A DNA stretch of 64,000 bases from Thermoplasmata archaeon. Lineage in GTDB: Archaea; Thermoplasmatota; E2; UBA202; JdFR-43. Within the stretch, counting starts at the first letter, position 1, and every line of letters starts with the position of its first letter. Position numbers and translations under genes: made by a program. Shown one piece after another: positions 10,890-55,609 of this stretch. Location: positions 11,952 through 75,951 of the forward strand of contig JAGGZK010000049.1 in assembly GCA_021162065.1 (NCBI GenBank), in the 5' to 3' direction. The notes under the pieces are model-generated. The model was not told where the DNA came from, did no database searches, and saw only the letters and a program-made list of their open reading frames with translations.

Positions 10890-11026
10890 TTTTTCACCGC
10901 GGGTAATACCAATACTAAATATAAACTTTAGTTGAGAAATGCTAACATTTATCACGAAAATGAATTAAAGGGTTAGATGCTAATAATCCAGAATGGATAA
11001 GGAACCACCTCCTGAAGGCGATATGC

Positions 11027-16316: not shown

Positions 16317-18779
16317 ATGAAGAAGTTTATAATAGCGGGCCTTGTTTTTGCAATCGCCATTTACGCCTTTGCACAGCCCACCATCAACAGTGTAAGCGAT
16401 TCTCCTGATCCCGTCGAGATGCCGGGTTATAACAACATCACCGCCGACATAACCAACGCCACAGATGCATGGGTGGAAATAAGCTATCCCAATGCCACCC
16501 TCATGGGCAACTTTTCCATGAGCAATGTGGCAGCCACAACAACATGGTATTATAACCACACATATACATATCCCGACCCACTGGGAACGTATTCATATGT
16601 TGTCAAAGCCCACAACGGTACGGGGTGGAGCACATCAGCCACCTACACTTTTGTTCTGCAAGATACAACAGCTCCCTCATCAAGTGTTGATACCCTGTCA
16701 AAATACTGGTATAACTCACAGCCCATTACCATTACCGCCACAGCAACAGACAATTATGCTGTAGCAAACGTTTCCCTCTGGTATCGCTATAGCACAGATA
16801 ACGCAACATGGGGTGCATGGACATTCTTCGGAAAGGATACAGCCTCACCATGGCAGTGGGATTTTACATTCCCCAATGGAGAGGGTTATTATGAATTCTA
16901 CACCATAGCCAATGATACCGCCGGCAATACAGAGGCAGCCCCAGGTTCTGCTGACGAGACTGCCGGCTATGACATTACGGCACCGTCAAGCAGCGTGGAC
17001 GCCATATCAGGATACTGGCAGACATCTCTTCCGTTGACCATAAATGCCACCGCTTCTGATGCCCTCTCGGGCCTGGCTCAGGTGAGCCTGTATTACCGCT
17101 TCTCCACCGATAATGCCACATGGGGTGCCTGGCAGTTGTTCTCCACCGATTCCGCATCTCCCTGGCAGTGGAGCTTTACCGCTCCTTCAGGAGATGGATA
17201 TTATGAATTCCATACAAGGGCAACGGACAATGCAGGAAATGCTGAAGCAGCACCTCTCTCCGCTGATGAAATTGCTGGTATCGATACCACTCCGCCTTCC
17301 ACAACCATCTCCGCCAGCCTGGCATATCTCTCATATGTGACTCCCTCGTCCGACATATCCCTTTCAGCCACCGACTCTGTCTCGGGTGTTAACACCACCT
17401 ACTATCGCATATGGAACGGCTCCTGGAATCCGGCGCCGGGAACAGGGGTTGGAAAATCGAACAACTTCTATGTTTACTCGGGCGTTTTCCATCTTACGAA
17501 AGAGGGAACAAACTATGTGGAGTATTACAGCACCGACAATGCGGGAAATGTGGAGAGTACCCATAACAGAACATATACCGTTGATAACTCTCCTCCATCC
17601 CTTGGCGCCATCGTAGCCAATCCATCCACACAGGTTCCGGGAGGAAGCGTGAATATAACCTGTACTGTTGAAGACACCCTCTCGGGCGTAAATGCTGTTT
17701 ATCTGGAAGTGACATATCCTGACTCCTCCTTTGCAAACTTCACCATGAACCACATTCCATGCACCACCTATTACAGGGAGGAGATATACAATGTGGAGGG
17801 GATGTACAACTTCACCATATATGCTGTCGATAACTTAGGAAATGCGGTTAAAAGCGGAGTATATCACTTTAACATCACCAGCGTAAATCACCCGCCCAAC
17901 ACACCAACGCAGCCCTCTGGAGTTACATCCGGCTATACAGGTGTGTCATACACCTACTCCACCTCCACCGTCGACCCCGATGGAGATAACATATACTATT
18001 TCTTCGACTGGGGAGACGGAAGCAACAGCGGATGGGTTGGCCCCTATGCTTCCGGTGTCACTGCAAGCGCATCCCACATATGGAGCAGCAGCGGCACCTA
18101 TCATGTGAGGGTAAAGGCGAAGGACACGAACAATGCGGAAAGCAGCTGGTCTTCTTATCTTTCCGTGACCATAAGCCCGTCCAATGCTCCACCCGTAACC
18201 ACCTATTCTCTTAATCCGCCCACCGCAGATGGTAAAAATGGATGGTATCTCCAGAACGTCACCGTCACCCTCTCAGCCACAGATCCCGAAGGAGATGCGA
18301 TACTGTATACAAAGTATAGAATAGATGGTGGCTCATGGATTACCTACACGGCCCCCTTCACCATAAGCAGCGAAGGTGCCCATCTTCTGGAGTACTACAG
18401 CCAGGACGATAAGGGAAGCACGGAGGACATAAAAAGCACCACCATAAAGATAGATAAATCGAAGCCGCACATAACATTGCAGCGTCCCCTCACCGGCTAC
18501 CTCTACCTCTTCGACAGGCAGATATGGCCTCTCGCCAGCGGCAACACCATCATAATAGGGAGGATACTGGTGAGAACTGTTGCCTATGACAGCGACTCGG
18601 ACATAGAGAATGTCACCTTTTATGTGAATGGAATGGTGGAGAGCATAGACACCATGTATCCCTATGAATGGCTGTGGAGGGGAAGCGTCGGCTATTATTA
18701 CCTCCATGCGGTGGCGTATAACAAGGCAGGACTGAAGGAGGAAACGGAACCCATCTTGGTATACATATTCAGCCTGTAA
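16317..18779 (+). CDS. Large secreted surface protein with two ~100-aa tandem repeats, a PKD domain and a C-terminal OmpL47-like/Ig-like module
   Basis: Signal peptide 'MKKFIIAGLVFAIAIYAFA'. Repeated 'SSSVD..S.YW..S.P.TI.ATA.D......VSL.YR.STDNATWGAW..F..D.ASPWQW.FT.P.G.GYYEF.T.A.D.AGN.EAAP.SADE'. PKD 'DPDGDNIYYFFDWGDG'. C-terminal 'YRIDGGSW..YT.PF.I..EG.H.LEYYS.D..G..E.....IKIDK..P'. Confidence 0.7.
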   Translation: MKKFIIAGLVFAIAIYAFAQPTINSVSDSPDPVEMPGYNNITADITNATDAWVEISYPNATLMGNFSMSNVAATTTWYYNHTYTYPDPLGTYSYVVKAHNGTGWSTSATYTFVLQDTTAPSSSVDTLSKYWYNSQPITITATATDNYAVANVSLWYRYSTDNATWGAWTFFGKDTASPWQWDFTFPNGEGYYEFYTIANDTAGNTEAAPGSADETAGYDITAPSSSVDAISGYWQTSLPLTINATASDALSGLAQVSLYYRFSTDNATWGAWQLFSTDSASPWQWSFTAPSGDGYYEFHTRATDNAGNAEAAPLSADEIAGIDTTPPSTTISASLAYLSYVTPSSDISLSATDSVSGVNTTYYRIWNGSWNPAPGTGVGKSNNFYVYSGVFHLTKEGTNYVEYYSTDNAGNVESTHNRTYTVDNSPPSLGAIVANPSTQVPGGSVNITCTVEDTLSGVNAVYLEVTYPDSSFANFTMNHIPCTTYYREEIYNVEGMYNFTIYAVDNLGNAVKSGVYHFNITSVNHPPNTPTQPSGVTSGYTGVSYTYSTSTVDPDGDNIYYFFDWGDGSNSGWVGPYASGVTASASHIWSSSGTYHVRVKAKDTNNAESSWSSYLSVTISPSNAPPVTTYSLNPPTADGKNGWYLQNVTVTLSATDPEGDAILYTKYRIDGGSWITYTAPFTISSEGAHLLEYYSQDDKGSTEDIKSTTIKIDKSKPHITLQRPLTGYLYLFDRQIWPLASGNTIIIGRILVRTVAYDSDSDIENVTFYVNGMVESIDTMYPYEWLWRGSVGYYYLHAVAYNKAGLKEETEPILVYIFSL

Positions 18780-19539: not shown

Positions 19540-20088
19540 ATGGATGAAATGGAGCATCTGAGGCAAGTGCTTGATTATATGCCCTGCAGTATATGCGAAA
19601 ATGTTGTGCCGGAGGAGGAAAGGAGATACATGTGCAGCATATGCGCCAGGATAAATAGAATCGTCTCCGCCGACAGGGCCATTCCCAAATGGAGGGTGGA
19701 TGAGGATGGTAACATAGTCCCCATAGAGGGAATGGACATGGAGGAACTCAAGCCAAGCATAAAGGTTATTGAAGAAGGAGAGGAGGAGGAAGAAAAGGAG
19801 GAGAAGGTTGAAATAGAGGTTCTCGAGGTTGGAGAGGATATAAAGGAGGAAGAGCTCACCATAGAGGAGGAGCTCCCAGAATGGGAGGCAATGGGAGATG
19901 AGGTTTACAAACATGGCGACTACACTCTTTACACCAAGGAGGTTATTCTGAGGGGTGGGAGAAAACAGAGGATATACTTCTTCAGCAAAAAGGAGGTGCA
20001 GGACGCAACCCCTTCACCGCTGCCAGAAGGTTATGAAGTGGGCATAAATAAGAGGACGGGACTTCCATATCTGAGAAAGAAGAAATAA
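19540..20088 (+). CDS. Hypothetical protein with N-terminal CxxC zinc finger and highly acidic E/K-rich linker
   Basis: 'CSICEN...CSICARI'. A ~50-aa Glu-rich low-complexity segment. Basic C-terminal end. Confidence 0.4.
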   Translation: MDEMEHLRQVLDYMPCSICENVVPEEERRYMCSICARINRIVSADRAIPKWRVDEDGNIVPIEGMDMEELKPSIKVIEEGEEEEEKEEKVEIEVLEVGEDIKEEELTIEEELPEWEAMGDEVYKHGDYTLYTKEVILRGGRKQRIYFFSKKEVQDATPSPLPEGYEVGINKRTGLPYLRKKK

Positions 20089-21059
20089 TGCTGGAGCAAC
20101 TCGACTATAATCTTCCCAGGGAGAGAATTGCACAGAAACCGTGGATTCCAAGGGATGAGTGCAACCTTCTTGTTTTGAATGGAGACGAGATAGAGCACAG
20201 GAAGTTCTATCATATTCTGGATTATGTTGGAAAAGGGGATGTTGTCATAATGAACAACACCCGTGTCATGAAGGTGAGATTGAAGGGGATAAAAGAAACG
20301 GGAGGAAAACTTGATTTGCTGGTGATAGGAAAGGAAGGAGAATATTACAAATGTCTGGTGAAGGGAAAATACAGGGAGGGCACATCCTTTTATCTGGGAG
20401 AGCATAGGGCTACAATAATAAAAAAGGATGAGGGAATGTGTCTCATTTCCATCCCACTTGAAATGGAGGAGATAAAGAAAATGGGCATCATGCCCACTCC
20501 GCCATACATAAAGGAGGAGGTGAGGGATGAAGAGTGGTATCAGACGGTGTTTGCAAGGGAAAAGGGCTCCATAGCAGCACCTACAGCAGGTCTTCATTTC
20601 ACCCCGTCGCTCCTCAAAAGGATGGAGGAGAAAGGAGTGAAAATTGTCTTTATCACCCTCCATGTGGGCCTTGCCACCTTTCTTCCGCCTGAGAGAATAA
20701 GGGAGGCAAGGGAATACTATCGCATTGGGGCCAGAGAGGCGGAAATCATTAACAGTGCTGATGGAAGAGTTATTGCAGTAGGGACAACCACCGTCAAGGC
20801 TCTGGAGAGCGCCTCGGAAAATGGAAGGGTGAGAGCATCTTCCGGCTGGAGCAATCTTTTTATCTCTCCCGGCTATGAATTCCAGTCGCCCATAAACGGA
20901 ATGCTCACCAACTTCCATATGCCAAAGTCATCACCTTTGCTTCTAACAACCGCCTTTGGAGGAGTGGAGAGGGTGATGAAGGCATATGAGGAGGCACTGA
21001 AAAGGGATTACAGATTTCTCAGCTTCGGAGATGCCATGCTCATACTCAAAAATGTTTGA
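20088..21059 (+). CDS. queA: S-adenosylmethionine:tRNA ribosyltransferase-isomerase (QueA)
   Basis: 'LDYNLPRERIAQKP...R..LLVL', 'GD.V.MNNTRV...RL.G.K.TGGK...L', 'PTPPYI', and 'GSIAAPTAGLHFT' are hallmark QueA blocks. Confidence 0.8.
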   Translation: MLEQLDYNLPRERIAQKPWIPRDECNLLVLNGDEIEHRKFYHILDYVGKGDVVIMNNTRVMKVRLKGIKETGGKLDLLVIGKEGEYYKCLVKGKYREGTSFYLGEHRATIIKKDEGMCLISIPLEMEEIKKMGIMPTPPYIKEEVRDEEWYQTVFAREKGSIAAPTAGLHFTPSLLKRMEEKGVKIVFITLHVGLATFLPPERIREAREYYRIGAREAEIINSADGRVIAVGTTTVKALESASENGRVRASSGWSNLFISPGYEFQSPINGMLTNFHMPKSSPLLLTTAFGGVERVMKAYEEALKRDYRFLSFGDAMLILKNV

Positions 21060-22062
21060 AATAACGGCTGAAAATGGAAGGGCAAGAACAGGGGTGCTCA
21101 GAGCGGGCAATATGAGTGTGGAAACTCCCGCCTTTCTCCCGGTGGCGACAAAGGCCTTCATAAAGACTCTGACTCCCGATGAGGCGAAGAGGACAGGGGT
21201 TAAGGCGATAATAGTCAATGCCCTCCACATATACAGGAGAGCGTATGATGTGGTGTCGAAAATAGGGCTGCATGAATTCATGAAATGGGACGGCATAATA
21301 TTTACCGACAGCGGCGGTTTTCAATCCATAAAGAAGTTTCCCGCCGATGCTGGCCAGGACGGCGTAACCTTCATGATGCCCGATGGAAGAAAGGAGATAT
21401 TCACTCCTGAAAAGTCCATGGAGGTGCAGAAGGCGATAGGAAGCGATTTTTTATTTGCCTTGGATGATTGTCCATCATATCCCTACACAAGAGAGAGGGT
21501 GGAGGAATCGGTGGAGAGGACAATAAAATGGGCAAGGAGATGCCAGGGAGAGAGACATTTTGCCATTCTTCAGGGAGGGGTGTATGCAGACCTCAGAAAA
21601 AAATGCGCAAAGGAGATATCGCAGATGGACTTCTTCGGCTTTGCCATAGGTGGGCTCTGCATAGGGGAGCCCAAGGAGGAGATGCACCATATGGTGGATG
21701 TCACAACACCTCTGCTACCAAAGGAAAAACCCCGTCATCTCATGGGAGTGGGCTCGCCGGAGGACATAATGGCATGTGTGGAGAAGGGCATAGATATATT
21801 CGACAGCGCCTTTCCCACGAGAAATGCGAGGCATGGAACCATCTTCACAAGCCATGGAAAAATAAATCTCGGAAAAGGGAAAGTGAGAGGGGATGCCATA
21901 GATGAAGAGTGCAATTGCTACACATGCAGGAACTTCTCCTTAGACTACTTAAACTATCTTTTCAGGGAGAAAGAAACCCTGGGAATGAGGCTCGCCACCA
22001 TACACAATCTTGCCTACATGAACGACCTTATGGAAAGAATAAGGGAGAAGATAAGGGGCTAA
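21052..22062 (+). CDS. tgt: Queuine tRNA-ribosyltransferase (tRNA-guanine transglycosylase), short bacterial-type without PUA/C-terminal arcTGT domains
   Basis: 'FEITAENGRARTG', 'VETPAFLPVATKA', 'LHEFMKWDGIIFTDSGGFQ', and the Zn site 'CNCYTCRNFS...H'. ~337 aa from the chosen start 'MFEIT' (the ORF track starts 21 nt earlier at 21031). Confidence 0.85.
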   Translation: MFEITAENGRARTGVLRAGNMSVETPAFLPVATKAFIKTLTPDEAKRTGVKAIIVNALHIYRRAYDVVSKIGLHEFMKWDGIIFTDSGGFQSIKKFPADAGQDGVTFMMPDGRKEIFTPEKSMEVQKAIGSDFLFALDDCPSYPYTRERVEESVERTIKWARRCQGERHFAILQGGVYADLRKKCAKEISQMDFFGFAIGGLCIGEPKEEMHHMVDVTTPLLPKEKPRHLMGVGSPEDIMACVEKGIDIFDSAFPTRNARHGTIFTSHGKINLGKGKVRGDAIDEECNCYTCRNFSLDYLNYLFREKETLGMRLATIHNLAYMNDLMERIREKIRG

Positions 22063-30538: not shown

Positions 30539-30622
30539 ATTTCTGAAGGAAAAATCATTACTTATGGTTTGTGAAAGATGATGCCATGGTGACCAAAAAA
30601 ATATATATCTCTCTAAGGCATT

Positions 30623-31873
30623 ATGCTCGTGAACAGCACTGTAATCCAGAAGATAATGGGAGAAAAGGTGGGCAGGAAGGTGGAGGTGGGGGAGAAAATA
30701 CTTCTCCCTCTTGATCTGGTGGTTATGAGGGATTTTGGAGGACCGAATGTAATAAAAAAATATGTAGAGAAGTTTGGAGAGGAAAGGCCATTGGATGCCA
30801 GAAAAATTGCCTTCACCTTCGATTTGCATCTGCCGGCAAGGCAGATAAAGGAGGCGGAGAATCAAAAGGCATGCAGGGAATTTGCCAAAAAATACGGGAT
30901 AAAGGTTTTTGATGTCAACAATGGCATAGGGCAGCACACCCTGCTGGAAAATGGCATGATAAAGCCGGGAAGCGTCGTTATAGGAACGGACAGCCACATG
31001 AATCTGCTTGGGGCAGCCAATTCCTTTTCCACAGGCGTTGGTACAACAGACATAGTGGCGGGTATGAGATTCGGAAAAACATGGTTTAAAGTTCCGGAGA
31101 CAATAAAGATAAATGTGGAGGGCGGGCTGAGTAAAGGCGTGTATGCCAAGGATTTGATTCTTCATATTGTGAAGACGCTGGGCTCAGATGGCGCCGCCTA
31201 TAAGGCGGTGGAGTTCTATGGCGATATCATAGAAAAAATGAATCTGGCAGCGAGGATAACCATGGCCTCCATGGTAACGGAGATGGATGGGAAAATCTCA
31301 TTTTTCCCGATGAACGACGCAGCCAAGGAGGAACTCAGGAAGTACGTAAGCTTTGACAAAGTCTACAACGCCGATGGGGATGCGGAGTATGCGGAGGAGT
31401 ACACCATAGAAACGCCATCTTCCCCCCAGATTGCGTGTCCCCATTCCCCCGATAACGTAAAAAGCATTGAAGAAGTGGAGGGCGTGGAAATAAATCAGGC
31501 CTTCATTGGCTCCTGCACCAATGGACGTCTGGAAGATTTGAGGGAAGCGGCAAAGATATTGAAGGGCAGGAAAATCAAGGAGGGCTTCCGTTTAATAATA
31601 ACGCCTGCCACCATAAATGTGGCGAGGGAGGCGGAGGAGAGAGGTTACATAAAAATCTTCCTGGAGGCAGGGGCAATAGTGACCAATCCCTCCTGCGCTT
31701 TATGCACCATAGGGCATCCGGGCGTGCTTGCCACAGGCGATGCAACGCTTTCCACATCCAATCGCAACTTTCCGGGCAAGATAGGGAAGGGCAGCATATA
31801 TCTCTGCTCTCCTGCCGTTGCCGCCTACTCGGCGATAAAAGGAAAAATAGCAGATCCGAGGGAGGTATTATGA
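30623..31873 (+). CDS. leuC: Aconitase-family hydro-lyase large subunit, LeuC/HACN type (3-isopropylmalate/homoaconitate dehydratase large subunit), copy 1
   Basis: 416 aa. 'GIGQHTLLENG', 'VIGTDSHMNLLGAA', 'AFIGSCTNGR', 'NPSCALCTIGH', 'TSNRNFPGK'. Aconitase Fe-S ligand cysteines present. Confidence 0.8.
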   Translation: MLVNSTVIQKIMGEKVGRKVEVGEKILLPLDLVVMRDFGGPNVIKKYVEKFGEERPLDARKIAFTFDLHLPARQIKEAENQKACREFAKKYGIKVFDVNNGIGQHTLLENGMIKPGSVVIGTDSHMNLLGAANSFSTGVGTTDIVAGMRFGKTWFKVPETIKINVEGGLSKGVYAKDLILHIVKTLGSDGAAYKAVEFYGDIIEKMNLAARITMASMVTEMDGKISFFPMNDAAKEELRKYVSFDKVYNADGDAEYAEEYTIETPSSPQIACPHSPDNVKSIEEVEGVEINQAFIGSCTNGRLEDLREAAKILKGRKIKEGFRLIITPATINVAREAEERGYIKIFLEAGAIVTNPSCALCTIGHPGVLATGDATLSTSNRNFPGKIGKGSIYLCSPAVAAYSAIKGKIADPREVL

Positions 31874-32361
31874 GAGGGAAAGTATGGAAATTTGGAGATG
31901 ATATAGATACCGACCAAATCTACCCGGGAGCATATCTTACGGTTACTGACGAGGATGAGATGGCGAAATATGCCATGACGGGGGTGGAGGGAAGAGAAAA
32001 CTTTGCGGATGTTGTGAGCAAAGGCGATATAATCGTTGCCGGCAAAAATTTTGGATGCGGTTCTTCCAGAGAGCATGCCCCCATGGCCATAAAGAAACTG
32101 GGTATAGCATGCGTCATAGCCAAATCCTTTGCAAGAATTTTTTACAGAAACGCCATAAACATAGGGTTGCCAGTCATAGAATTAAAGGAGACGGATGAGA
32201 TAAATGAAGGGGATGAACTGGAAGTGGATGTGCATGAGGGCGTGATAAAAAATCTTACCACGGGAAAGGTTTACAAAGCAATGCCCATGGGAGAGCTGGA
32301 AAGGAAAATAATGGAAGCGGGAGGGCTTATAGAGTATTTGAGGGGAGAAAATGAAGGATGA
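31870..32361 (+). CDS. leuD: Aconitase-family small subunit, LeuD type, copy 1
   Basis: 'MRGKVWKFGDDIDTDQIYPG', 'GKNFGCGSSREHAP', 'FARIFYRNAINIGLP'. ATGA overlap with the upstream stop. Confidence 0.8.
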   Translation: MRGKVWKFGDDIDTDQIYPGAYLTVTDEDEMAKYAMTGVEGRENFADVVSKGDIIVAGKNFGCGSSREHAPMAIKKLGIACVIAKSFARIFYRNAINIGLPVIELKETDEINEGDELEVDVHEGVIKNLTTGKVYKAMPMGELERKIMEAGGLIEYLRGENEG

Positions 32362-32866
32362 ATATATAAGGCAACTGTTTCCAGAGGTGGAGGAGATAGA
32401 GAGCAAAGAATTAAGGAATAAAGTTGTTAAAATATGGGCTAAGGCCATGGAGATGGGAGGTTGGAATAAAATAGATGACATACCCTTCACCCTGCTCATA
32501 ACCACGGATAAATCACTTGTAAGCCATACACGAATGATTGTTAAAATGGCCATGGCGGTGGCGGATGAGAGAAAAGATTTGGACAGGGATGCGGTGATAG
32601 CAGGGGCATTGCTTCATGATGTGGGCAAGCTGCTGGAGTATGAGAGAAAGGATGGGAAAGTTGTGAAAAGCGGGATGGGAAAAAGAATAAGGCATCCCGT
32701 TTCCGGCGCCGCCCTCGCCATGGAGGAGGGATTGGACAGCATAGCCCACATAATAGCAGCACATTCCAAGGAGGGGGAGTTTGTGGAGCGCAGCAAAGAG
32801 GCGATACTGATTCATCATTGCGATTTCATAGATTTTGAGATTGAAAAGGCAAAGGTGAAGAAGTGA
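32351..32866 (+). CDS. HD-domain metal-dependent phosphohydrolase
   Basis: 'HTRMIVKMA...AGALLHDVGK' (H...HD) and a later 'HH.D'. 171 aa. Embedded in the leuCD/citF operon. Confidence 0.6.
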   Translation: MKDEYIRQLFPEVEEIESKELRNKVVKIWAKAMEMGGWNKIDDIPFTLLITTDKSLVSHTRMIVKMAMAVADERKDLDRDAVIAGALLHDVGKLLEYERKDGKVVKSGMGKRIRHPVSGAALAMEEGLDSIAHIIAAHSKEGEFVERSKEAILIHHCDFIDFEIEKAKVKK

Positions 32867-34272
32867 AGGGGAGGGAGGCAAAAATAACGGAGTTAAAAAA
32901 TGCACTGAAGAAGTGCGGGATTAAGGACGGCTGCACCATCTCCTTCCATCATCAGCTCCGCAATGGAGACAACGTCATCAATTTAACGCTTGAGGCGGTG
33001 AGGGAGTTAGGAATCAAAAACATACGGCTTGCCCAGACTGCCATATTTGATGTTCATAAGCCGGTGATAGAGTATATAGAGGATGGAACCATAGGAAGCA
33101 TAGAGGGAAGCATAAACGGCATTGTGGGCGATTATGTTTCAAAAAATCCCATGGAAAAGCCAGTCATCCTGAGAAGCCACGGAAGAAGATGGGGCGATGT
33201 GAGGAACGGCACACTTCATATAGACATCGCTGTCATAGCAGCCTCGGCGGCAGATGAAATGGGAAACTGCACGGGCATAATCGGAAAGAATCCCTTTGGC
33301 CCCATCGCATACTCTCAAATGGATGCCATGATGGCCGACAGGGTCATAGTGGTTACCGATACCCTTGAAGAATATCCCTGTCCCTATCAGGAAATAACGG
33401 AGAATTATGTTGATTATGTGGCTGTGGTGGATAACATAGGAGATCCATCGAGAATAGCATGGGGAACAACGAAAATAACCACGGATCCGGTAAAGCAGAA
33501 AATTGCCCACAACTGCGTCGATTTTATGGAAGCAGCGGGCATTGTAAGGGATGGTATGGGTTTTCAGTTCGGGGCAGGTGGAACATCGCTTGCAGTAACG
33601 AAATATCTTGGCGATTTACTGAGGGAGCGCAATATAAAGGCTTCCTTTGCCATAGGAGGAGTAACGAAGATACTGGTGGATATGTTTAAGGAAGGGCTTA
33701 TAAAGAAACTCTTCTACGGCCAGTGCTTTGATGACCATGCGGTAAAATTCTTTGCCGAACGCCCTTTGAATACGCCGGTCATGAACGTGGGCAACTATGC
33801 AGATCCGGAGGGCAAGAGCAGGGCAGTGGAGAGCTTAGATGTGGTGGTGCTCGGAGGGACGGAGGTGGACACAAACTTCAATGTGAATGTGAACACCCAC
33901 AGCGATGGCCGCCTCCTTCATGGCATAGGAGGACATCAGGACACGGCGGCGGGGGCAAAGGTGACGATGATAGCATTGCCCATATATAGAAAGACGAATC
34001 CCATTGTGAGGGAGAAGGTCACCACAATAACAACTCCTGGAGATGTGGTTGACGTTGTCGTCACGGATGTGGGAATAGCAATAAATCCCAGAAGAAAGGA
34101 TTTGATGGAAAAGGTAAGGGGAATGGATGTTTTCTCCATAGAGGAGCTGAAGGAAATGGCGTATGCCCATACAGGAGAGCCGTTGCCGCCATCCACTGGC
34201 AAGGAGGTTGTGGCGGAGGTCAAATGGATTGACGGGAATGTAATCGATAAAGTTTACAGAGTGGTGGAATAA
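32863..34272 (+). CDS. citF: Citrate lyase alpha-subunit family (citrate CoA-transferase, CitF)
   Basis: Colinear with recalled E. coli CitF: 'DGCTISFHHQLRNGD.V.N', 'HIDIAVI.A...DE.GN', 'QFGAGG.SLAVT', 'FNVNV.T.SDG...GIGGH.DTA', and the C-terminal 'TGEPLP.....VVAEVKWIDGNVIDKVYRV'. Confidence 0.75.
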   Translation: MKGREAKITELKNALKKCGIKDGCTISFHHQLRNGDNVINLTLEAVRELGIKNIRLAQTAIFDVHKPVIEYIEDGTIGSIEGSINGIVGDYVSKNPMEKPVILRSHGRRWGDVRNGTLHIDIAVIAASAADEMGNCTGIIGKNPFGPIAYSQMDAMMADRVIVVTDTLEEYPCPYQEITENYVDYVAVVDNIGDPSRIAWGTTKITTDPVKQKIAHNCVDFMEAAGIVRDGMGFQFGAGGTSLAVTKYLGDLLRERNIKASFAIGGVTKILVDMFKEGLIKKLFYGQCFDDHAVKFFAERPLNTPVMNVGNYADPEGKSRAVESLDVVVLGGTEVDTNFNVNVNTHSDGRLLHGIGGHQDTAAGAKVTMIALPIYRKTNPIVREKVTTITTPGDVVDVVVTDVGIAINPRRKDLMEKVRGMDVFSIEELKEMAYAHTGEPLPPSTGKEVVAEVKWIDGNVIDKVYRVVE

Positions 34273-35322
34273 ATGGAATGGGAGACGTATATAACAAAAA
34301 TAGAGCCCAATGTCATAGCCATAAGAGGATATCCCATACAAAAGCTGATAAAGGAAAGGGATTTTTTCGACTCCCTTCATTTAATAATCACGGGCGAGTT
34401 TCCCGATGGGGAGAAAAAGAGAGGAATGGAGGAGATGTTTGGGAAAGCAATATCTCTGCCTGTAAATAAATTTGAAAGGTTTGAAAAGGAGGACATATCG
34501 AAGGTGCTGGCGAGATATCTATTAATGGATGAGCATCTCGTTTCTTTTGATGGGGAAAAGGAGGAAAGGGCTGCGTTCATGGCAGGAAGAATGGTAACTT
34601 ATCTTTCCTCCATCTATTCCGTGGAAATCAATGGCCAGGAATTTTCTCATATCCTTTCTGGAGTTCTTTCAGGAGATGGAAATGGAAAATATGCGAGAAT
34701 GATGGAGGCAATGGTTATCGCTTCCTTAGATCATGGAGTTACGCCCCCTTCTGTTCAATCAGCCGTAATTGCCGCCTCTGTCCGTGCATCCCATGAGGTA
34801 GCCATGGCAAATGGCATCTCTGCCATTACAGATGTGCATGGAGGGGCGGGGATGAAGGCAGCAGAATTCTTCAAAAAATGTGTGGAGATGGCGGAAAGGG
34901 AGCAAATGGACATAGAGGAGGCGGCGAGGAAGATGGTCATGGAATATGTGGAGCAGGGAAAGAGAATAAAGGGACTGGGGCATCGTATTCATTCCGCCGA
35001 CCCAAGAAAAGATGCATTGCTGGAGATTGCGAGGAAGGAAGGCATAGATGGCGATGCTGTCAGGGTGGCAGAGATGCTTGAAGATATATTTTATGAGGTG
35101 AAGGGGAAAAGGTTGCCGCTCAACGTTGATGGAGTCATAGGGGCGTTGGTGGCGGATATGAATCTTAAACCTGAGGTGGCGAAGATATTATTTATATATG
35201 GTAGGGTTGCGGGGCTTTCCGCCCATTATTTCGAGGAAGTGGAAAATTATCCGCCCATGAGGAGAATAGATTTCTCCAGGGCGGTTTATAAGGGAAAGGA
35301 GGTGAAAGATTGGGAACCTTAG
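34273..35322 (+). CDS. Citrate-synthase-family protein, minimal (349 aa): candidate citryl-CoA lyase / small citrate-type synthase
   Basis: All three citrate synthase catalytic positions are recognisable: 'DVHGGAG' (His), 'GLGHRIHSADPR' (His), 'LPLNVDGVIGALV' (Asp). N-terminal 'IRGYPIQKLI...FFDSLHLIITGEFP' resembles CS 'YRGY.I.DL....F.EV.YLL..G.LP'. About 30-80 aa shorter than typical archaeal citrate synthases. Confidence 0.7.
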   Translation: MEWETYITKIEPNVIAIRGYPIQKLIKERDFFDSLHLIITGEFPDGEKKRGMEEMFGKAISLPVNKFERFEKEDISKVLARYLLMDEHLVSFDGEKEERAAFMAGRMVTYLSSIYSVEINGQEFSHILSGVLSGDGNGKYARMMEAMVIASLDHGVTPPSVQSAVIAASVRASHEVAMANGISAITDVHGGAGMKAAEFFKKCVEMAEREQMDIEEAARKMVMEYVEQGKRIKGLGHRIHSADPRKDALLEIARKEGIDGDAVRVAEMLEDIFYEVKGKRLPLNVDGVIGALVADMNLKPEVAKILFIYGRVAGLSAHYFEEVENYPPMRRIDFSRAVYKGKEVKDWEP

Positions 35323-36563
35323 CGGAGAATATTCTTGCAGAAGCAAGCGGGAAGAGTGTATCACCAGGGGAGATTGTTTATGCGGGCGTTGATACGGCCA
35401 TGTCCCATGAGAATGCCGCCCTCGTGATAAGATGGTTCAGAGAAATAGGAAGAGAAAGGGTGTGGGATAACGAAAAGATTGTTATAATATTCGATCATCG
35501 TGTGCCCGCTGAATCAATAAAAACGGCTGAGGGGCAGAAGAAGATAAGGAACTTTGTCAAGGAGCAGGGGATAAAGCACTTCTACGACATAAACACGGGC
35601 ATATGCCATCAGGTGCTGGCAGAGAAGGGCTTTTCACGCCCTGGAATAGTGCTTGTTGGCACCGACAGCCATACCACAACAGCAGGGGCATTCGGGGCAT
35701 TCGCCACAGGCATAGGGGCAACGGAAATGGCGGGAGTATGGGCAACGGGCAGAATATGGTTCAAGGTGCCGGAGACAATAAAGATAAATGTGGAGGGTGA
35801 GTTGAGCAAGGGTGTGTATGCTAAAGATGTTATACTCCACATCATAGGCCATCTGAGAGCAGATGGTGCCAACTACATGGCGGTGGAGTTTGATGGAGAT
35901 ACAATCAAAAACATGAGCATTGCATCCAGAATGGTTCTCTCCAATCTTTCCATGGAAATGGGAGCGAAGGTGGCCTTTGTCTATCCCGATGAAAAAACAA
36001 AGAAATGGCTGGAGGAAAGGAAGGCAAAGCCATACAGATTCATTCTTCCTGATAAAGAGGCAAGATATGTGGATGAATACAACTTTGATGCCTCGGAGAT
36101 AACGCCAAAGGTGGCATGCCCCCATACCGTGGATAACGTAAAAAGCATTGAGGAGGTTGAAGGCACAGAGATAAATCAGGCCTTCATCGGCTCCTGCACC
36201 AATGGACGCCTGGAGGATCTAAGGGAGGCGGCGAAGATATTGAAGGGAAGAAAGGTTAAGGAGGGGGTGCGTTTGATAATCGGCCCCGCATCATGGGAGG
36301 TTTACAGGGATGCCATGAGGGAAGGTTTGTTAGACATATTCATAGAGGCGGGGGGCGTGATAATAAATCCGGGTTGTGGACCCTGCTTGGGCGCCCATCA
36401 GGGAATACTTGCCTCTGGTGAGGTGGCCATATCCACCACCAACAGAAACTTCCAGGGAAGGATGGGCTCCCCGGAATCATTTGTGTATCTCGCCTCTCCC
36501 GCTGCCGTGGCTGCTTCAGCCATAGAGGGAAAGATAGCAGACCCAAGAAAATATTTGAGGTGA
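35310..36563 (+). CDS. leuC: Aconitase-family hydro-lyase large subunit, LeuC/HACN type, copy 2
   Basis: 417 aa paralog of 30623..31873 with the same motif blocks ('VLVGTDSHTTTAGA', 'AFIGSCTNGRLEDLREAAKILKGRK', 'NPGCGPCLGAH', 'TTNRNFQGR'). Confidence 0.8.
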   Translation: MGTLAENILAEASGKSVSPGEIVYAGVDTAMSHENAALVIRWFREIGRERVWDNEKIVIIFDHRVPAESIKTAEGQKKIRNFVKEQGIKHFYDINTGICHQVLAEKGFSRPGIVLVGTDSHTTTAGAFGAFATGIGATEMAGVWATGRIWFKVPETIKINVEGELSKGVYAKDVILHIIGHLRADGANYMAVEFDGDTIKNMSIASRMVLSNLSMEMGAKVAFVYPDEKTKKWLEERKAKPYRFILPDKEARYVDEYNFDASEITPKVACPHTVDNVKSIEEVEGTEINQAFIGSCTNGRLEDLREAAKILKGRKVKEGVRLIIGPASWEVYRDAMREGLLDIFIEAGGVIINPGCGPCLGAHQGILASGEVAISTTNRNFQGRMGSPESFVYLASPAAVAASAIEGKIADPRKYLR

Positions 36564-36567
36564 TGAG

Positions 36568-37050
36568 ATGGGCAAGGTATGGAAATTTGGAGATGATGTA
36601 AATACAGATGTGATTTATCCGGGATATGCTCTCAAGGTCACCAATCCGGATGAGATGGCAAAGTATGCCTTTGCGGAGGTGTATCCCGAATTCTCAAAAG
36701 AGGTGAAGGAGGGCGATATAATCGTTGCTGGCAAGAATTTTGGATGCGGTTCCTCCAGAGAGCAGGCGGCGCTGTGTTTAAAGTATGTGGGCATCTCATG
36801 CGTCATAGCCAAATCCTTTGCAAGAATTTTTTACAGAAACGCCATAAACATAGGGCTTCCGGTCATAGAATTAAAGGAGACGGACGAGATAAATGAGGGG
36901 GATGAGCTGGAAGTGGATTTGAATGAGGGTATTCTGAGGAATGTAACGCAGGGAAAGGAATATAAGATAAAGCCGTATCCTGAAATAATCAGGAGAATAA
37001 TAGATGCCGGAGGCCTGATAAATTATCTGAAGGAGGGAAAAAATGTATAA
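36568..37050 (+). CDS. leuD: Aconitase-family small subunit, LeuD type, copy 2
   Basis: 'MGKVWKFGDDVNTDVIYPG', 'GKNFGCGSSREQAA', 'FARIFYRNAINIGLPVIELKETDEINEGDELEVD' (nearly identical to copy 1 over this block). Confidence 0.8.
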   Translation: MGKVWKFGDDVNTDVIYPGYALKVTNPDEMAKYAFAEVYPEFSKEVKEGDIIVAGKNFGCGSSREQAALCLKYVGISCVIAKSFARIFYRNAINIGLPVIELKETDEINEGDELEVDLNEGILRNVTQGKEYKIKPYPEIIRRIIDAGGLINYLKEGKNV

Positions 37051-38149
37051 AATAGCCATACTGCCGGGAGATGGAGTGGGAAAGGAGGTTATAGAAGCGG
37101 CGATGATGGTGCTTGAAAAGGTTGAATTGGACGCGGAATACATATACGGAGACATAGGATGGGAGTTCTGGAGGAAGGAGGGAAATCCCCTGCCGGAGAG
37201 GACCATAGAACTGCTTAAGGAAACGGATTGCGCTTTAATGGGTGCCATAACATCCAAGCCAAAAAAAGAGGCGGAGAAGGAACTGGCACCGGAATTGCAG
37301 GGGAAGGGTCTGGAGTATTACAGCCCCATTGTGGCATTGCGCCAGCTCTTCAACCTCTACGCCAACATAAGGCCTGTGAAGGCGTATGAAGGCAATCCTC
37401 TGAATTTTAAAGAAAACATCAACCTTGTCATTTTCAGAGAAAACACGGAAGGGCTGTATACAGGCGTTGAATATCGCCCGGTTCCAGAGGAACTGGAGGA
37501 GGTGCTTGCGAAACATGAAAGATATAAGAAGTTCGTGGGAAAGGAGAAGGCCATATCCCTCCGCATAATATCAAGGGAAGGGGCGGAGAGGATAGTGAGA
37601 AAGGCCTTTGAGTATGCCAGGGAGAATAATCTTGGCAAGGTAACGGTGGCGGAGAAACCCAATGTGCTTAGGGAGACGAGCGGCCTTTTTGTGGAGGTGG
37701 CAAGAAAGATACATGAGGAATATGGAGAGATAGAGATGGATGAGGCGAACATAGATGCGATGGCCATGTGGCTGATAAAGAATCCGGAGAACTATGATGT
37801 CATCGTCACATCCAACCTATTTGGAGACATACTATCCGACCTGGCGAATCAGCTTGTGGGCGGCCTTGGCTTCGCCGCCGCCGGTAACGTGGGAGATGAC
37901 TATGCTTTATTTGAACCCGTGCATGGCTCCGCTCCAAAATATGCTGGCATGTATAAAGTAAATCCGATAGCGACGATAAGGGCTGCGGTGATGATGCTTC
38001 TTTATCTCGGCGAGAGAGAGAAGGCAGAGGCAATAGAGTATGCCATTGAGGAGGTTGTCAGAGAGGGTAAGGTAAGAACATATGACATGGGCGGCAATGC
38101 TTCCACTTTGGAAATGGCGGAGGCAATAGCAGGGAAGATAGAGGGCTAA
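37043..38149 (+). CDS. Beta-decarboxylating dehydrogenase (isocitrate / isopropylmalate / homoisocitrate dehydrogenase family)
   Basis: 'KIAILPGDGVGKEV', 'SPIVALRQLFNLYANIRPV', 'NLFGDILSDLA', and C-terminal 'YDMGG.AST.EM'. Substrate specificity is not assignable by eye. Confidence 0.8.
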   Translation: MYKIAILPGDGVGKEVIEAAMMVLEKVELDAEYIYGDIGWEFWRKEGNPLPERTIELLKETDCALMGAITSKPKKEAEKELAPELQGKGLEYYSPIVALRQLFNLYANIRPVKAYEGNPLNFKENINLVIFRENTEGLYTGVEYRPVPEELEEVLAKHERYKKFVGKEKAISLRIISREGAERIVRKAFEYARENNLGKVTVAEKPNVLRETSGLFVEVARKIHEEYGEIEMDEANIDAMAMWLIKNPENYDVIVTSNLFGDILSDLANQLVGGLGFAAAGNVGDDYALFEPVHGSAPKYAGMYKVNPIATIRAAVMMLLYLGEREKAEAIEYAIEEVVREGKVRTYDMGGNASTLEMAEAIAGKIEG

Positions 38150-45296: not shown

Positions 45297-47559
<2,263 letters not shown>

Positions 47560-47724
47560 TTTTTGAGCGTCCCCTCACTTTTATTTAAAATCCAGAATTA
47601 TAATTTTAGGGCATTCAGTATTATAATTTTGGAAATTCTAATTGATTAAAATGCAAAAATTTACAATTCAACACCTCTCAAATACAAAAAATTTATTATT
47701 AGATATGGCATTAACACGTAAAGT

Positions 47725-48762
47725 GTGATAAATATGGGAGTGAAAATTGCTAAAAACAGAGTAAATGAATTCTTGAAATACCTTAAAGAGGAATACATTC
47801 TTTATGCTCCTGTTGAGGAAAACGGTGTTTCAAAAATTTCTAAGATAGAGGATACATCGGACATAATAAATCTTCCATATAGAACACAAATATCTTTAAA
47901 ACCCATATTTTTCCCCCCTGAACAAAAATTTTTCAGGTTTGAGAAAAAAAATGGAGGAGTTGAGATTGAAGACTATCTTCCGCAGGAAGGTGATGATAAG
48001 AGCATAATCTTCGGCGTGCGTGGTTGCGATGTTAATGCTATTGAGGTTCTGGATAAATATATGTTGGATGAATTTGAGGATCCCTACTACAGGAAAAGGC
48101 GGGAGAATGCTATAATTATAGGCATCTCCTGTGACTATCCAAAAGAATCCTGCTTCTGCACCGCCTTCGGAGGAATGGTGCCAGAGAGATATGATCTCTG
48201 GTTTACAGATATTGGCCCCCATTTCTATGTCGATATTGGCAGTAAGAGAGGGGAAAAATTGATTGATGACAAATTTTTTGAGGAGGCATCTGAAGAAGAT
48301 GAAATGAGAAAAATTCGAAGAATAAACTCCGTAGAAACCAAGATAAATCGGAAAGTGAAAACGAATCTACATGATATAAAAAAATATTATCATAAGATAA
48401 AAAACAGGGCTGATGATTCAATATGGGAAGAACTCGGAAGAAAATGTGTCTCCTGTGGAAAATGCAATTTCATATGTCCCACATGCCACTGCTTTGACGT
48501 GAAAGACATGACAAATATTGACGGCAGTGCTGGAGAAAGAATAAGAGTGTGGGACTCATGTCATCTTTATGATTATGCAAAGACCTCTGCAGAGAATTTC
48601 AGAGAGGAGAGAAAAGCAAGGGTGAGATACAGGATATATGATAAATTTGTTTTTCCGGTTATGAGATACGGTGTCTATGCATGCACTGGATGTGGAAGAT
48701 GTAGTGAGGTTTGTCCTGCCGGAATAGATATCCATGCAGTTGTAAGGAGGTTGATAAAATGA
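47725..48762 (+). CDS. hydB: Cytoplasmic NiFe sulfhydrogenase beta subunit (Fe-S)
   Basis: Cys clusters 'CVSCGKCNFICPTCHCFD' and 'CTGCGRCSEVCPAGI'. First gene of the hydBGDA-like run. Alternative start at 47734. Confidence 0.7.
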   Translation: MINMGVKIAKNRVNEFLKYLKEEYILYAPVEENGVSKISKIEDTSDIINLPYRTQISLKPIFFPPEQKFFRFEKKNGGVEIEDYLPQEGDDKSIIFGVRGCDVNAIEVLDKYMLDEFEDPYYRKRRENAIIIGISCDYPKESCFCTAFGGMVPERYDLWFTDIGPHFYVDIGSKRGEKLIDDKFFEEASEEDEMRKIRRINSVETKINRKVKTNLHDIKKYYHKIKNRADDSIWEELGRKCVSCGKCNFICPTCHCFDVKDMTNIDGSAGERIRVWDSCHLYDYAKTSAENFREERKARVRYRIYDKFVFPVMRYGVYACTGCGRCSEVCPAGIDIHAVVRRLIK

Positions 48763-49574
48763 ATAATCCATATCTTCCTGCTGTAGCCAGAATAACTGAT
48801 ATAATAGAGGAAACCCCAGATACAAAAACTTTTGTTATATCATCGCCCCTCAAATTCAAACCCGGACAGTTTGTGGAACTCAGCATTTTTGGATATGGAG
48901 AGGCACCAATATCAATTTCTGGTGGAAATGAAAAAAGTATAGATTTAACAATAAGAGCTGTGGGAAACATTACAAAAAAGATTCACAGGATGAACGTGGG
49001 AGATTATGTTGGAATAAGAGGGCCCTTTGGCAATGGATGGCCCGTAGAAAGGGCGGAGGGAAGGAATCTCCTCATAGCAGCAGGCGGCATAGGTCTGGCA
49101 CCATTAAAGCCCGTAATCGAGTATGTTTGCAACAACAGAAAAAAGTTCAGGAATGTGACATTGCTCTATGGCGCAAGAAAACCCTCTCTGATGCTTTTCA
49201 AATACAAATTAGAGGAATGGTCAAAACACATGGATGTTCTGTTAACAGTGGACGAGCCAGAAGAAGGTTGGAAAGGGAATGTGGGCGTTGTAACAACACT
49301 TTGTGACAGGATAAAACACGTTTCAGATACTGTAACACTGATGTGTGGCCCACCCATAATGATGAAGTACACATCCATTTCCCTTATGGAACTCGGCTTT
49401 CCAACAGGCGAGATGTATCTATCTCTGGAAAGGAATATGAAATGTGGCATAGGAATATGCGGGCATTGCGCCGTCGGCGGCCTGTATGTTTGCAGAGATG
49501 GCCCTGTATTCTCCCTGAATGACGCCCTTAAACTTATTGAAAAGCCGCACGAGGTGCAGGGGGTGATAGATTGA
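48759..49574 (+). CDS. hydG: NiFe sulfhydrogenase gamma subunit (FAD/NAD(P)-binding, 2Fe-2S)
   Basis: FNR-like 'GQFVELS', 'LLIAAGGIGLAPL', and C-terminal 'CGIGICGHCAVGGLYVCRDGPVF'. ATGA overlap with hydB. Confidence 0.75.
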   Translation: MNNPYLPAVARITDIIEETPDTKTFVISSPLKFKPGQFVELSIFGYGEAPISISGGNEKSIDLTIRAVGNITKKIHRMNVGDYVGIRGPFGNGWPVERAEGRNLLIAAGGIGLAPLKPVIEYVCNNRKKFRNVTLLYGARKPSLMLFKYKLEEWSKHMDVLLTVDEPEEGWKGNVGVVTTLCDRIKHVSDTVTLMCGPPIMMKYTSISLMELGFPTGEMYLSLERNMKCGIGICGHCAVGGLYVCRDGPVFSLNDALKLIEKPHEVQGVID

Positions 49575-50317
49575 ATATAGGCATATTTTCTCTTTCATGC
49601 TGCGAGGGTTGCTCTGTGCAATTTCTCAACTTGGAGGCAAAAATTCTTGAAATTCTTAAATACCTAAATATAAAAAATTTCAGGCTCGCCAAAGAGTACA
49701 ACGAGATGCCCGTAGATATAGCCTTTGTGGAAGGAACACCGACAACAAGAGAAGAGGTACTAAAATTACTTACGATACGAAAGGAGAGTAAAATACTGGT
49801 GGCTCTGGGAACATGTGCCGTCACTGGAGGAGTGCCTGGACTGGTAAACATGATGGCCAAAAAGGAAGCCATGGAGGTTTATGATGGTTTTCCTCCAGAT
49901 GTGCCCATAGATCCCAAACCGTTGGAATACTATGTAAATGTGGACTACAACATTTATGGATGCACCTTCTCAAAAGACGAGTTGATTGAACTCATAACCT
50001 CACTTATTATTGGTAAAGAATACCGGGATAAGGAATACAGCGTGTGTGTGGAATGCTCCCTGCGAGAGAATAACTGTCTCCTTGATGATGGCCATCTATG
50101 TTTGGGGCCCATAACAAGGGGCGGCTGCAAGGCACTCTGCCCAAATAATGGAAAAATGTGCCTTGGTTGCCGCGGCCCATATGAGGATGCCAATATCAAG
50201 GGACATATAAAGATTCTTCAGGATATGGGATTCACCAAAGATGAAATAATAGAGAGTCTTTCCCTTTTTTCATATGAAAAATTTAAGGAGGTTATATCAT
50301 GGCTAAAAGAAGAATAA
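49571..50317 (+). CDS. hydD: NiFe hydrogenase small (delta) subunit
   Basis: 'IGIFSLSCCEGCSVQF' proximal-cluster motif, 'GTCAVTGGVPG', 'CVECSLREN', 'CLGCRGP'. Apparent TTG start overlapping the hydG stop. Confidence 0.8.
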   Translation: MNIGIFSLSCCEGCSVQFLNLEAKILEILKYLNIKNFRLAKEYNEMPVDIAFVEGTPTTREEVLKLLTIRKESKILVALGTCAVTGGVPGLVNMMAKKEAMEVYDGFPPDVPIDPKPLEYYVNVDYNIYGCTFSKDELIELITSLIIGKEYRDKEYSVCVECSLRENNCLLDDGHLCLGPITRGGCKALCPNNGKMCLGCRGPYEDANIKGHIKILQDMGFTKDEIIESLSLFSYEKFKEVISWLKEE

Positions 50318-55531: not shown

Positions 55532-55609
55532 GATGATGCATTGCACAGGAGTTTAAAATGTTTCTCCACATCAAAGGTAGTTATTTATATGCCAAAACAT
55601 ATTCTTTCC

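Follow-up and report, generated by a model that had tools for sequence, protein, structure and literature searches.

In a 64-kb stretch of the genome of an uncultured Thermoplasmata archaeon from sediment (GCA_021162065.1, contig JAGGZK010000049.1, positions 11,952 to 75,951; the whole stretch is hereafter called the window), a citrate lyase alpha-type CoA-transferase, CitF, is encoded immediately upstream of a protein with the citrate-synthase fold, and the two proteins probably constitute a citrate lyase that requires neither an acyl carrier protein (ACP) nor ATP and that acts on free CoA thioesters. The citF gene (32863..34272, + strand) begins with GTG and encodes 469 aa (PF04223, TIGR01584), and the adjoining gene (34273..35322, + strand) encodes a 349-aa protein that is described here as a putative long-form citryl-CoA lyase (CCL). 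The initial annotation had noted a CitF without CitE, CitD or maturation genes, paired with a citrate-synthase-fold neighbour, and had proposed a two-protein citrate lyase dependent on free CoA. Both ORFs have been confirmed, none of the classical partners was detected in the 64 kb by Pfam or tblastn, and the proposed enzyme has gained support from comparative genomics, including the CCL clade, a swap of partners, synteny and the pairing itself. An independent gene call on an identical metagenome contig yielded the same two genes.

In the proposed mechanism, CitF would form citryl-CoA by the chemistry of EC 2.8.3.10 (citrate + acetyl-CoA <-> (3S)-citryl-CoA + acetate), and the CCL would then act on it by the chemistry of EC 4.1.3.34, in which citryl-CoA is reversibly split into acetyl-CoA and oxaloacetate. 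The net reaction would be citrate <-> acetate + oxaloacetate, with acetyl-CoA playing a purely catalytic role. Free citryl-CoA is expected to link the pair, since it is the only intermediate that a CitF-type transferase and a CCL-type lyase can share. Such a system would be a hybrid that draws its transferase from bacterial CitDEF and its lyase from the family that includes CCL, the partner of citryl-CoA synthetase (CCS), and ATP-citrate lyase, this lyase taking the place of CitE and CitD. The two genes are likely to be translationally coupled within an eight-gene operon, which as a whole would connect 2-oxoglutarate, (iso)citrate, oxaloacetate and acetate. The identities of the genes, the structure of the operon, the intact active site of the lyase, the change of partner specific to one clade and the conserved synteny are established below; from these we infer that CitF uses free CoA, that the lyase lacks thioesterase activity, that citrate is the substrate and in which direction the reaction runs.

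The window CitF matches its family profile over the full length (PF04223, 461.1 bits against a cutoff of 27, E 6e-138, profile positions 6-466 of 466) and lies barely above the cutoff of the citF equivalog model TIGR01584 (504.6 against 501.45 bits). Its alignments with the solved structures 1XR4 and 2HJ0 both score about 380 bits (381.7 bits for 1XR4), and it is 41-50% identical to the bacterial CitF family. Once isolated, the CitF alpha subunit is reported to use acetyl-CoA instead of acetyl-ACP (IUBMB entry for EC 2.8.3.10; work of Dimroth and Eggerer). Across CCL-linked and CitE-linked CitFs, 84 positions are identical and at least 90% conserved, which is consistent with the acceptance of acetyl-CoA by CitF. 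When remodelling for CoA as opposed to ACP was sought, only eight positions were found to discriminate the two groups; most of these are conservative, the largest changes being H70Q, P168S and C185F (E. coli numbering), and such mild differences would become informative only with a ligand-bound structure. The N-terminal length varies inside the clade.

The classical citrate lyase arrangement, in which the alpha subunit is encoded together with CitE and CitD, does not occur in the window. The Pfam scan of the 64 kb, which covered 60 ORFs that do not overlap one another and are 90 aa or longer, revealed no CitD (the ACP, PF06857), CitE (HpcH_HpaI), CitC, CitG or CitX, and tblastn with the E. coli CitC, CitD, CitE, CitX and CitG sequences returned no match in the window at E<=1e-5. 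Likewise, no protein with PF00549, PF13607, PF02629 or an ATP-grasp domain is encoded in the operon or elsewhere in the window. The eight genes of the operon lie on the + strand (30623-38149), and neighbouring genes overlap or are separated by at most 5 nt, a packing too tight to leave room for a concealed small gene. The stop of the preceding HD-domain gene overlaps the CitF start by 4 nt; the CCL gene starts directly where that of CitF stops, and its own end shares 13 nt with the gene that follows.

The citrate-synthase-fold protein matches the superfamily-wide profile Citrate_synt (PF00285) with 125.8 bits. Its best match in the PDB is 6HXP, the CCL of Hydrogenobacter thermophilus (119 bits, E 1.9e-33); the highest-scoring citrate synthase reaches 53 bits. 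Its top four NCBIfam matches are citryl-CoA lyase models, and the citrate synthase models of NCBIfam give at most 81 bits against cutoffs of 332-590. Comparison with a large protein database yielded 44-50% identity along the entire protein, both with stand-alone proteins of 345-370 aa and with the C-terminal half of proteins of 530-611 aa, the N-terminal half of which is composed of Ligase_CoA and Succ_CoA_lig domains, the domain architecture of the ATP-citrate lyase alpha subunit. These comparisons support the assignment of the protein, by sequence, to the citryl-CoA lyases rather than to the citrate synthases, and both the fusion and the partner context lend indirect support to a predicted cleavage of citryl-CoA without hydrolysis.

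The active site of the citrate synthase superfamily is retained. Residues H229, H264, H305, R314, D362, F383 and R387 of E. coli citrate synthase correspond to H154, H189, H237, R245, D286, F307 and R311 of the window protein, and all seven are invariant in 20 members of the lyase family; the position of R407 corresponds to R331, which is variable in the family, and the adjoining R330 is invariant. The residue set from H229 to R407 has been used as citrate-synthase markers (PMC13147460). The window protein does not have the compact architecture of about 260 aa that characterizes the Aquificae-type lyases (256-268 aa), as residues 48-139, about 92 in number, have no counterpart in 6HXP and align with the N-terminal region of citrate synthases. 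The other CitF-linked lyases include short forms (L008-L020). An AlphaFold2 (AF2) model of the window protein (mean confidence, pLDDT, 91.6) resembles whole archaeal and bacterial citrate synthases with template modelling (TM) scores of 0.72-0.79, against 0.50 (TMq) for 6HXP. The fold shared with the Aquificae lyase had been recognized in the initial annotation, and 6HXP indeed proved to be the best solved relative; the description as a truncated citrate-synthase-family enzyme was only partly right, for at 349 aa and with the whole fold present the protein is not cut down to the size of the Aquificae CCL.

An argument for a common intermediate is provided by the distribution of partners among CitF and CCL genes. 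Two sets of loci were compared by rough neighbour-joining trees of CitF and of the lyase core: 92 CitF sequences (80 loci from a scan with one genome per species, together with metagenome loci) and 80 metagenome loci obtained by a scan with the lyase family alignment. The CitFs that are adjacent to CCL form a single clade of Thermoplasmatota type, comprising 27 loci, in 24 of which the CCL gene lies immediately 3' of citF; of the remaining three, one is cut off by the contig end at citF, and the other two (L002 and L003) are orphans. The CitF of L002 (496 aa, 10001-11491), which belongs to the archaeal clade, is encoded without a neighbouring lyase on a contig of 152 kb, where the only HD gene is situated about 8 kb away, beside Trm56. 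An HD gene precedes citF in all CCL-paired loci of the clade except one that lies at a contig start. No CitE or CitD was found within 10 kb of CitF in any of the 27 loci of the archaeal-type clade, and bacterial CitFs have CitE adjacent, usually with CitD, wherever the flanks allow this to be seen. The CitF-linked lyases themselves belong to at least three lineages (the short-form clade, the clade of the window protein and two loci among the ligase-fused forms), and their CitFs are monophyletic. That CCLs from at least three lineages accompany a single CitF clade indicates selection on the pairing.

The lyase loci show the same position occupied by another enzyme. In most of the 80 loci, a succinyl-CoA-synthetase-alpha-like domain is fused to the lyase or encoded immediately 5' of it, and CitF is found there in a minority. 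In the WOR-3 genome CP070705 the order is IDH-LeuC-LeuD-HD-[SucC-like]-[SucD-like]-CCL-LeuC-LeuD (IDH, isocitrate dehydrogenase), which is like that of the window, with the ligase pair at the place of CitF. The flanking genes are positional orthologues (LeuC1 53%, LeuC2 64%, HD 59% and IDH 58% identity; cross-comparisons of the LeuC proteins give 40-45%). This synteny places CitF at the exact site of an ATP-dependent and presumably citryl-CoA-forming enzyme; the fused forms suggest that the WOR-3 ligase pair is a citryl-CoA synthetase. In a Myxococcota cluster, the order IDH-HD-aconitase-LeuC-LeuD-CCL is followed by two ligase subunits, and in the archaeon SG8-52-3 (Thermoplasmatales; a Thermoprofundales metagenome-assembled genome (MAG); L009, 9383-13951) the order is HD-CitF-short CCL (256 aa)-fused LeuCD. 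Many loci of Acidobacteriaceae, Terriglobia, Ignavibacteria and Bacteroidales encode similar HD proteins (41-44%) and dehydrogenases (49-53%) and mostly aconitase-family genes as well, and have kept CitD-CitE-CitF; in one of them (L086, 8521-11398) CitD and CitE share a single 428-aa ORF. No CitX, CitG or CitC was detectable with E. coli queries within 10 kb of the Acidobacteriaceae and Terriglobia CitF loci (L024-L065, L086). The accessory module, consisting of the HD protein, the hydro-lyases and the dehydrogenase, accompanies four interchangeable solutions, namely CitF-CCL, CitDEF, ligase plus CCL and the fused form.

The members of this module surround the pair in the window. The operon begins with a LeuC/HacA-like large subunit of an aconitase-family hydro-lyase (paralogue 1, 416 aa, 30623..31873, + strand; PF00330 270.8 bits, PRK00402 472 bits with a cutoff of 385), the stop of which overlaps by 4 nt with the gene of the LeuD-like small subunit (163 aa, 31870..32361, + strand; TIGR02087 221 bits, loop YLTV). 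The HD-domain (HDIG) protein follows (171 aa, 32351..32866, + strand; PF01966 42.9 bits). Downstream of the CCL gene lie a second, HacA/LeuC-like large subunit (paralogue 2, 417 aa, 35310..36563, + strand; PF00330 358 bits), its small subunit (160 aa, 36568..37050, + strand; TIGR02084 228.8 bits, TIGR02087 227.9 bits, loop ALKV) and a beta-decarboxylating dehydrogenase of the isocitrate/homoisocitrate type (368 aa, 37043..38149, + strand; PF00180 327 bits), which belongs to a subfamily named here 'SPIV'. The gene downstream of the operon is on the opposite strand. A TATA-like A/T-rich box (aaaaaaatatatat, 30597..30610, + strand), read from the sequence 13-26 nt 5' of the operon's first ATG, may possibly serve as an archaeal promoter, in which case the leader would be very short.

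The two large subunits are distinct paralogues, since LeuC1 shows 53% identity with the WOR-3 LeuC that lies upstream and 40% with the one that lies downstream, and LeuC2 shows 64% with the latter. Two different hydro-lyases are encoded in each cluster, a LeuCD1-type or a 600-aa fused form together with a LeuCD2-type (the window, L173, L088 and L086); in the Acidobacteria clusters, a PrpD-family dehydratase replaces one of them. This arrangement suggests that the conversions of citrate to cis-aconitate and of cis-aconitate to isocitrate are divided between the two hydro-lyases. The dehydrogenase has its best PDB matches in an NAD-dependent IDH (6LKY, 263 bits) and in the Thermus homoisocitrate dehydrogenase (237 bits). 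The motif GAITSKPK...SPIV.[ML]RQ and a 13-aa insert are common to the dehydrogenases of CitF-CCL, CitDEF and ligase-CCL clusters; those sampled lie at 37043-38149 in the window, 7317-8549 in L086, 335-1519 in L088 and 4108-5199 in L173. Its specificity positions are mixed, with Ser at the position of E. coli IDH S113, Ile for N115 and Val for R85 of homoisocitrate dehydrogenase. The HD protein has invariant residues H59, H89-D90, H115, H138 and D158, is 57-66% identical to its WOR-3 and Aciduliprofundum homologues, and is encoded next to the genes for citrate cleavage in each of the four kinds of cluster (the window, L086, L088, L090, L173 and many of L091-L170). The homologue of Aciduliprofundum boonei (63% identical) lies away from citrate genes. 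Searches for its function by PDB sequence comparison, an AF2 model and Foldseek returned only generic HD folds, the best being the HD domain of YhaM. Two other accounts of the locus were rejected. A citrate-fermentation (uptake) locus would be expected to resemble those of Firmicutes with CitT, and neither a citrate transporter nor an oxaloacetate decarboxylase is encoded in the window; a chance adjacency of leucine-biosynthesis genes and CitF does not account for the occurrence of like paralogue pairs and of the same dehydrogenase subfamily beside citrate-cleaving genes in unrelated bacteria.

Several observations weigh against the proposed two-protein citrate lyase. The whole clade is known from homology and gene context only, and in the sub-lineage of L002 and L003 CitF exists without an adjacent CCL. 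The WOR-3 ligase pair scores as a succinyl-CoA synthetase. The window lyase stays below the NCBIfam cutoffs for CCL (206.0 against 245 for NF004866 and 200.7 against 212 for NF004869), and its modelled structure keeps the whole citrate-synthase architecture, so that a thioesterase (true synthase) activity may be present. The dehydrogenase does not have the Asn that binds the gamma-carboxylate of isocitrate in E. coli IDH, and the score of hydro-lyase paralogue 2 falls just short of the threshold for methanogen homoaconitase (HacA_Meth, 545.9 bits, cutoff 550). Finally, the view extends to 64 kb of the genome, and citD, citE, citX or citG could lie elsewhere. The shortfall of the lyase scores is attributable to the 92-aa segment, which is absent from the NCBIfam CCL models; relatives do exceed the cutoffs, such as P0125 (226.8 against 212) and the CitF-linked short CCL of SG8-52-3 (298.4 against 245).

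Were the missing genes encoded beyond the window, CitF might still use an ACP with a phosphoribosyl-dephospho-CoA arm, and the fold protein would replace only CitE, acting on citryl-S-ACP. The high conservation of CitF with respect to the ACP-dependent CitFs, from which it is distinguished by so few positions, would be in keeping with such a hidden carrier. This explanation is nevertheless regarded as very improbable, as no ACP or maturation gene is present within 10 kb of any examined CitF of the archaeal clade, whereas the bacterial CitD gene is almost always adjacent, and as all characterized relatives of the lyase, to our knowledge including every CCL, ATP-citrate lyase and citrate synthase, use free CoA esters.

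The complete citrate-synthase fold, together with the presence of all catalytic residues, is also what would be expected if the two proteins had no common intermediate, the fold protein being a hydrolysing citrate synthase engaged in glutamate synthesis and CitF acting separately or serving CitDE encoded elsewhere. Cluster L090, which contains CCL-like and aconitase genes with no CitF or ligase within 6 kb, agrees with this explanation, as does the general design of the operon, since operons of citrate synthase, aconitase and IDH are common in anaerobes. However, the scores with the citrate synthase models fall far short of their cutoffs, and a like long-form protein is fused to CoA-ligase domains, which is a lyase-type usage. 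The replacement of CitE and CitD by CCL at the level of a whole clade, with three CCL lineages involved, is hard to explain for uncoupled proteins, and if a transferase that makes citryl-CoA stood beside an enzyme that hydrolyses it, the two would amount to a futile acetyl-CoA hydrolase. Such an uncoupled pair is regarded as quite unlikely.

The absence of the Asn in the dehydrogenase and the homoaconitase-like character of paralogue 2 raise the question of the substrate, as the tricarboxylate might not be citrate. The operon could handle a citrate analogue, such as homocitrate, made up of 2-oxoglutarate and an acetyl unit, or another 2-hydroxy tri- or dicarboxylate, and the CitF-CCL pair would then serve, as a CoA-transferase and lyase of homocitrate type, in the elongation or shortening of 2-oxoacid chains. 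Besides the near-threshold score of paralogue 2 and the Ile at the position of IDH Asn115, this possibility is favoured by the best NCBIfam matches of the dehydrogenase, which are homoisocitrate dehydrogenases (with the Thermus enzyme among its top PDB matches), and by the two separate hydro-lyases, an arrangement typical of homocitrate and methylcitrate routes. On the other hand, CitF scores above the citF equivalog threshold; the lyase keeps the oxaloacetate-binding residues of citrate synthase and is nearest to bona fide CCL and ATP-citrate-lyase-type proteins; and the dehydrogenase has the Ser found in IDH and lacks the Arg85 by which the homoisocitrate dehydrogenase of Thermus is marked. 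The loops of the two small subunits, YLTV and ALKV, also differ from YLRT, which we take to be the loop motif of methanogen homoaconitase. An analogue is considered an unlikely substrate, and citrate remains the more probable one for the CitF-CCL pair.

The predicted citrate lyase resembles several known systems, and differs from each. With bacterial CitDEF and its CitC, CitX and CitG proteins (EC 4.1.3.6; Klebsiella, E. coli and Leuconostoc), it shares the family of the alpha subunit and the predicted net reaction via a citryl thioester, at no cost of ATP. Unlike in CitDEF, the 64 kb contain no ACP, no TIM-barrel CitE and no genes for prosthetic-group maturation; the lyase step would be performed by an unrelated enzyme of the citrate-synthase fold, and the proposed carrier must be free CoA. 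With the CCS/CCL system of Hydrogenobacter thermophilus (EC 6.2.1.18 and 4.1.3.34), it shares a homologous lyase and the logic of forming free citryl-CoA that is then cleaved. However, citryl-CoA is proposed to arise by CitF-mediated CoA transfer from acetyl-CoA rather than through an ATP-dependent homologue of succinyl-CoA synthetase, the proposed products are acetate and oxaloacetate instead of acetyl-CoA and oxaloacetate, and the window lyase is a 349-aa long form with some 92 extra residues. The pair thus resembles both citrate lyase and CCS/CCL yet does not show the defining features of either, as it has neither CitD and CitE nor an ATP-dependent synthetase.

ATP-citrate lyase (AclAB/ACLY) and its fused forms contain a C-terminal module homologous to the window lyase (44-50% identity in the fused proteins, as given above), and the related clusters share HD, aconitase-family and IDH-like genes with the operon; in the window, by contrast, the lyase module stands alone, and CitF occupies the position of the ATP-grasp/CoA-ligase subunit, which is missing from the operon. 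It is a matter of debate whether the corresponding module in human ACLY serves in catalysis or in allostery (PMC10115795). Citrate synthase (EC 2.3.3.1) has in common with the window protein the overall fold and the catalytic His/His/Asp and Arg residues, whereas the window protein falls in the lyase clade and its gene context implies that citryl-CoA would be released or accepted, not hydrolysed. The closest parallel in terms of accessory genes (HD, aconitase-family and IDH-like) is found in the clusters of Ignavibacteria, Acidobacteria and Bacteroidales with CitF and CitE-CitD; these retain CitE and the carrier protein, for both of which the archaeal clusters have CCL. In Ignavibacterium album, which has CitF and a fused CitE-CitD, ATP-independent citrate cleavage and a reverse tricarboxylic acid (TCA) cycle have been speculated upon (PMC3362086).

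With regard to direction, the equilibrium constant of citrate lyase is about 0.1-1 M (standard thermodynamic tables), and a constant of this order favours cleavage at physiological concentrations. Citrate cleavage is regarded as the more probable direction for the CitF-CCL pair. The CCL step has been listed as near equilibrium (PMC13147460). Cleavage would fit a route from glutamate-derived 2-oxoglutarate to acetate and oxaloacetate in a peptide-degrading anaerobe. A more far-reaching reading, in which the pair is a thioester-sparing citrate synthase, the module represents an undescribed but widespread anaerobic citrate/2-oxoglutarate pathway and the long-form lyase is a living intermediate between CCL and citrate synthase, can be offered only tentatively and, taken as a whole, seems doubtful. 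If the synthase direction were true, acetate and oxaloacetate would be converted to citrate with catalytic acetyl-CoA, and citrate would feed the hydro-lyases and the dehydrogenase towards 2-oxoglutarate; energy-starved sediment archaea would then spend no acetyl-CoA thioester and no ATP for acetate activation. A parallel is known from Desulfobacter, which runs ATP-citrate lyase backwards and gains ATP.

The remainder of the window is of archaeal character, as the nearest homologues of its proteins occur in uncultured Thermoplasmatota and Thermoplasmatales MAGs, and genes for ribosomal protein L21e, Rpb4, Pus10 and RNase P Rpr2 are found on the same contig. At 20088-22062, a QueA-type gene (PF02547, E 8.5e-102) overlaps that of a short, 343-aa tRNA-guanine transglycosylase (PF01702); we take this pair to resemble the bacterial queuosine pair, not the archaeal archaeosine transglycosylase, and it is odd in an archaeal window. 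A glutamate dehydrogenase is encoded at 9537-10955 (- strand), and at 45297-51564 an NfnAB/GltD-like oxidoreductase pair precedes four genes that form a cluster resembling a NiFe (sulf)hydrogenase (Fer4_22, NAD-binding/DHODB Fe-S, Oxidored_q6 and NiFeSe_Hases). Several large surface proteins with PKD, Big and NosD repeats, along with two C25-family peptidases, are located at 2-1030, 16317-18779, 51684-57124 and 60273-63854, which suggests an extracellular protein-degrading lifestyle. The window thus holds glutamate dehydrogenase, C25 peptidases and the NiFe-hydrogenase cluster alongside the operon. GC skew and AT skew flip sign together, seemingly tracking the coding strand, and GC skew is +0.25 to +0.29 over the region of the + strand operon.

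The initial annotation regarded a two-protein citrate lyase of this kind as a biochemical novelty. No published description of a CitF-CCL pairing was found, although the literature covered is incomplete and novelty is thus unproven. Hu and Holden (2006) reportedly described an ATP-independent 'acetylated citrate lyase' activity in Pyrobaculum. The pairing recurs across Thermoplasmatota lineages, including Thermoprofundales (MBG-D). In the Thermoprofundales genome paper, the reverse TCA cycle was judged by the absence of aclAB and frdAB, and citrate and citrate lyase are not mentioned.

The existence of a natural stand-alone CCL without an acyl-CoA-synthetase-homology domain bears on the dispute over the catalytic or allosteric role of the ACLY module, and a long-form lyase in which the fold of citrate synthase is complete matters for the hypothesis that a CCL-like ancestor gave rise to citrate synthase. 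The CitF-CCL hypothesis is directly testable with two recombinant proteins. Pathway-prediction schemes that seek only aclAB, ccsAB/ccl and citDEF would miss the pair. Citrate cleavage is at present ascribed to ATP-citrate lyase, to CCS/CCL and to the ACP-dependent CitDEF, in addition to reversed citrate synthase. If the proposed reaction is true, CitF-CCL would represent a fourth solution, one that needs no ATP, no carrier protein and none of the three maturation enzymes.

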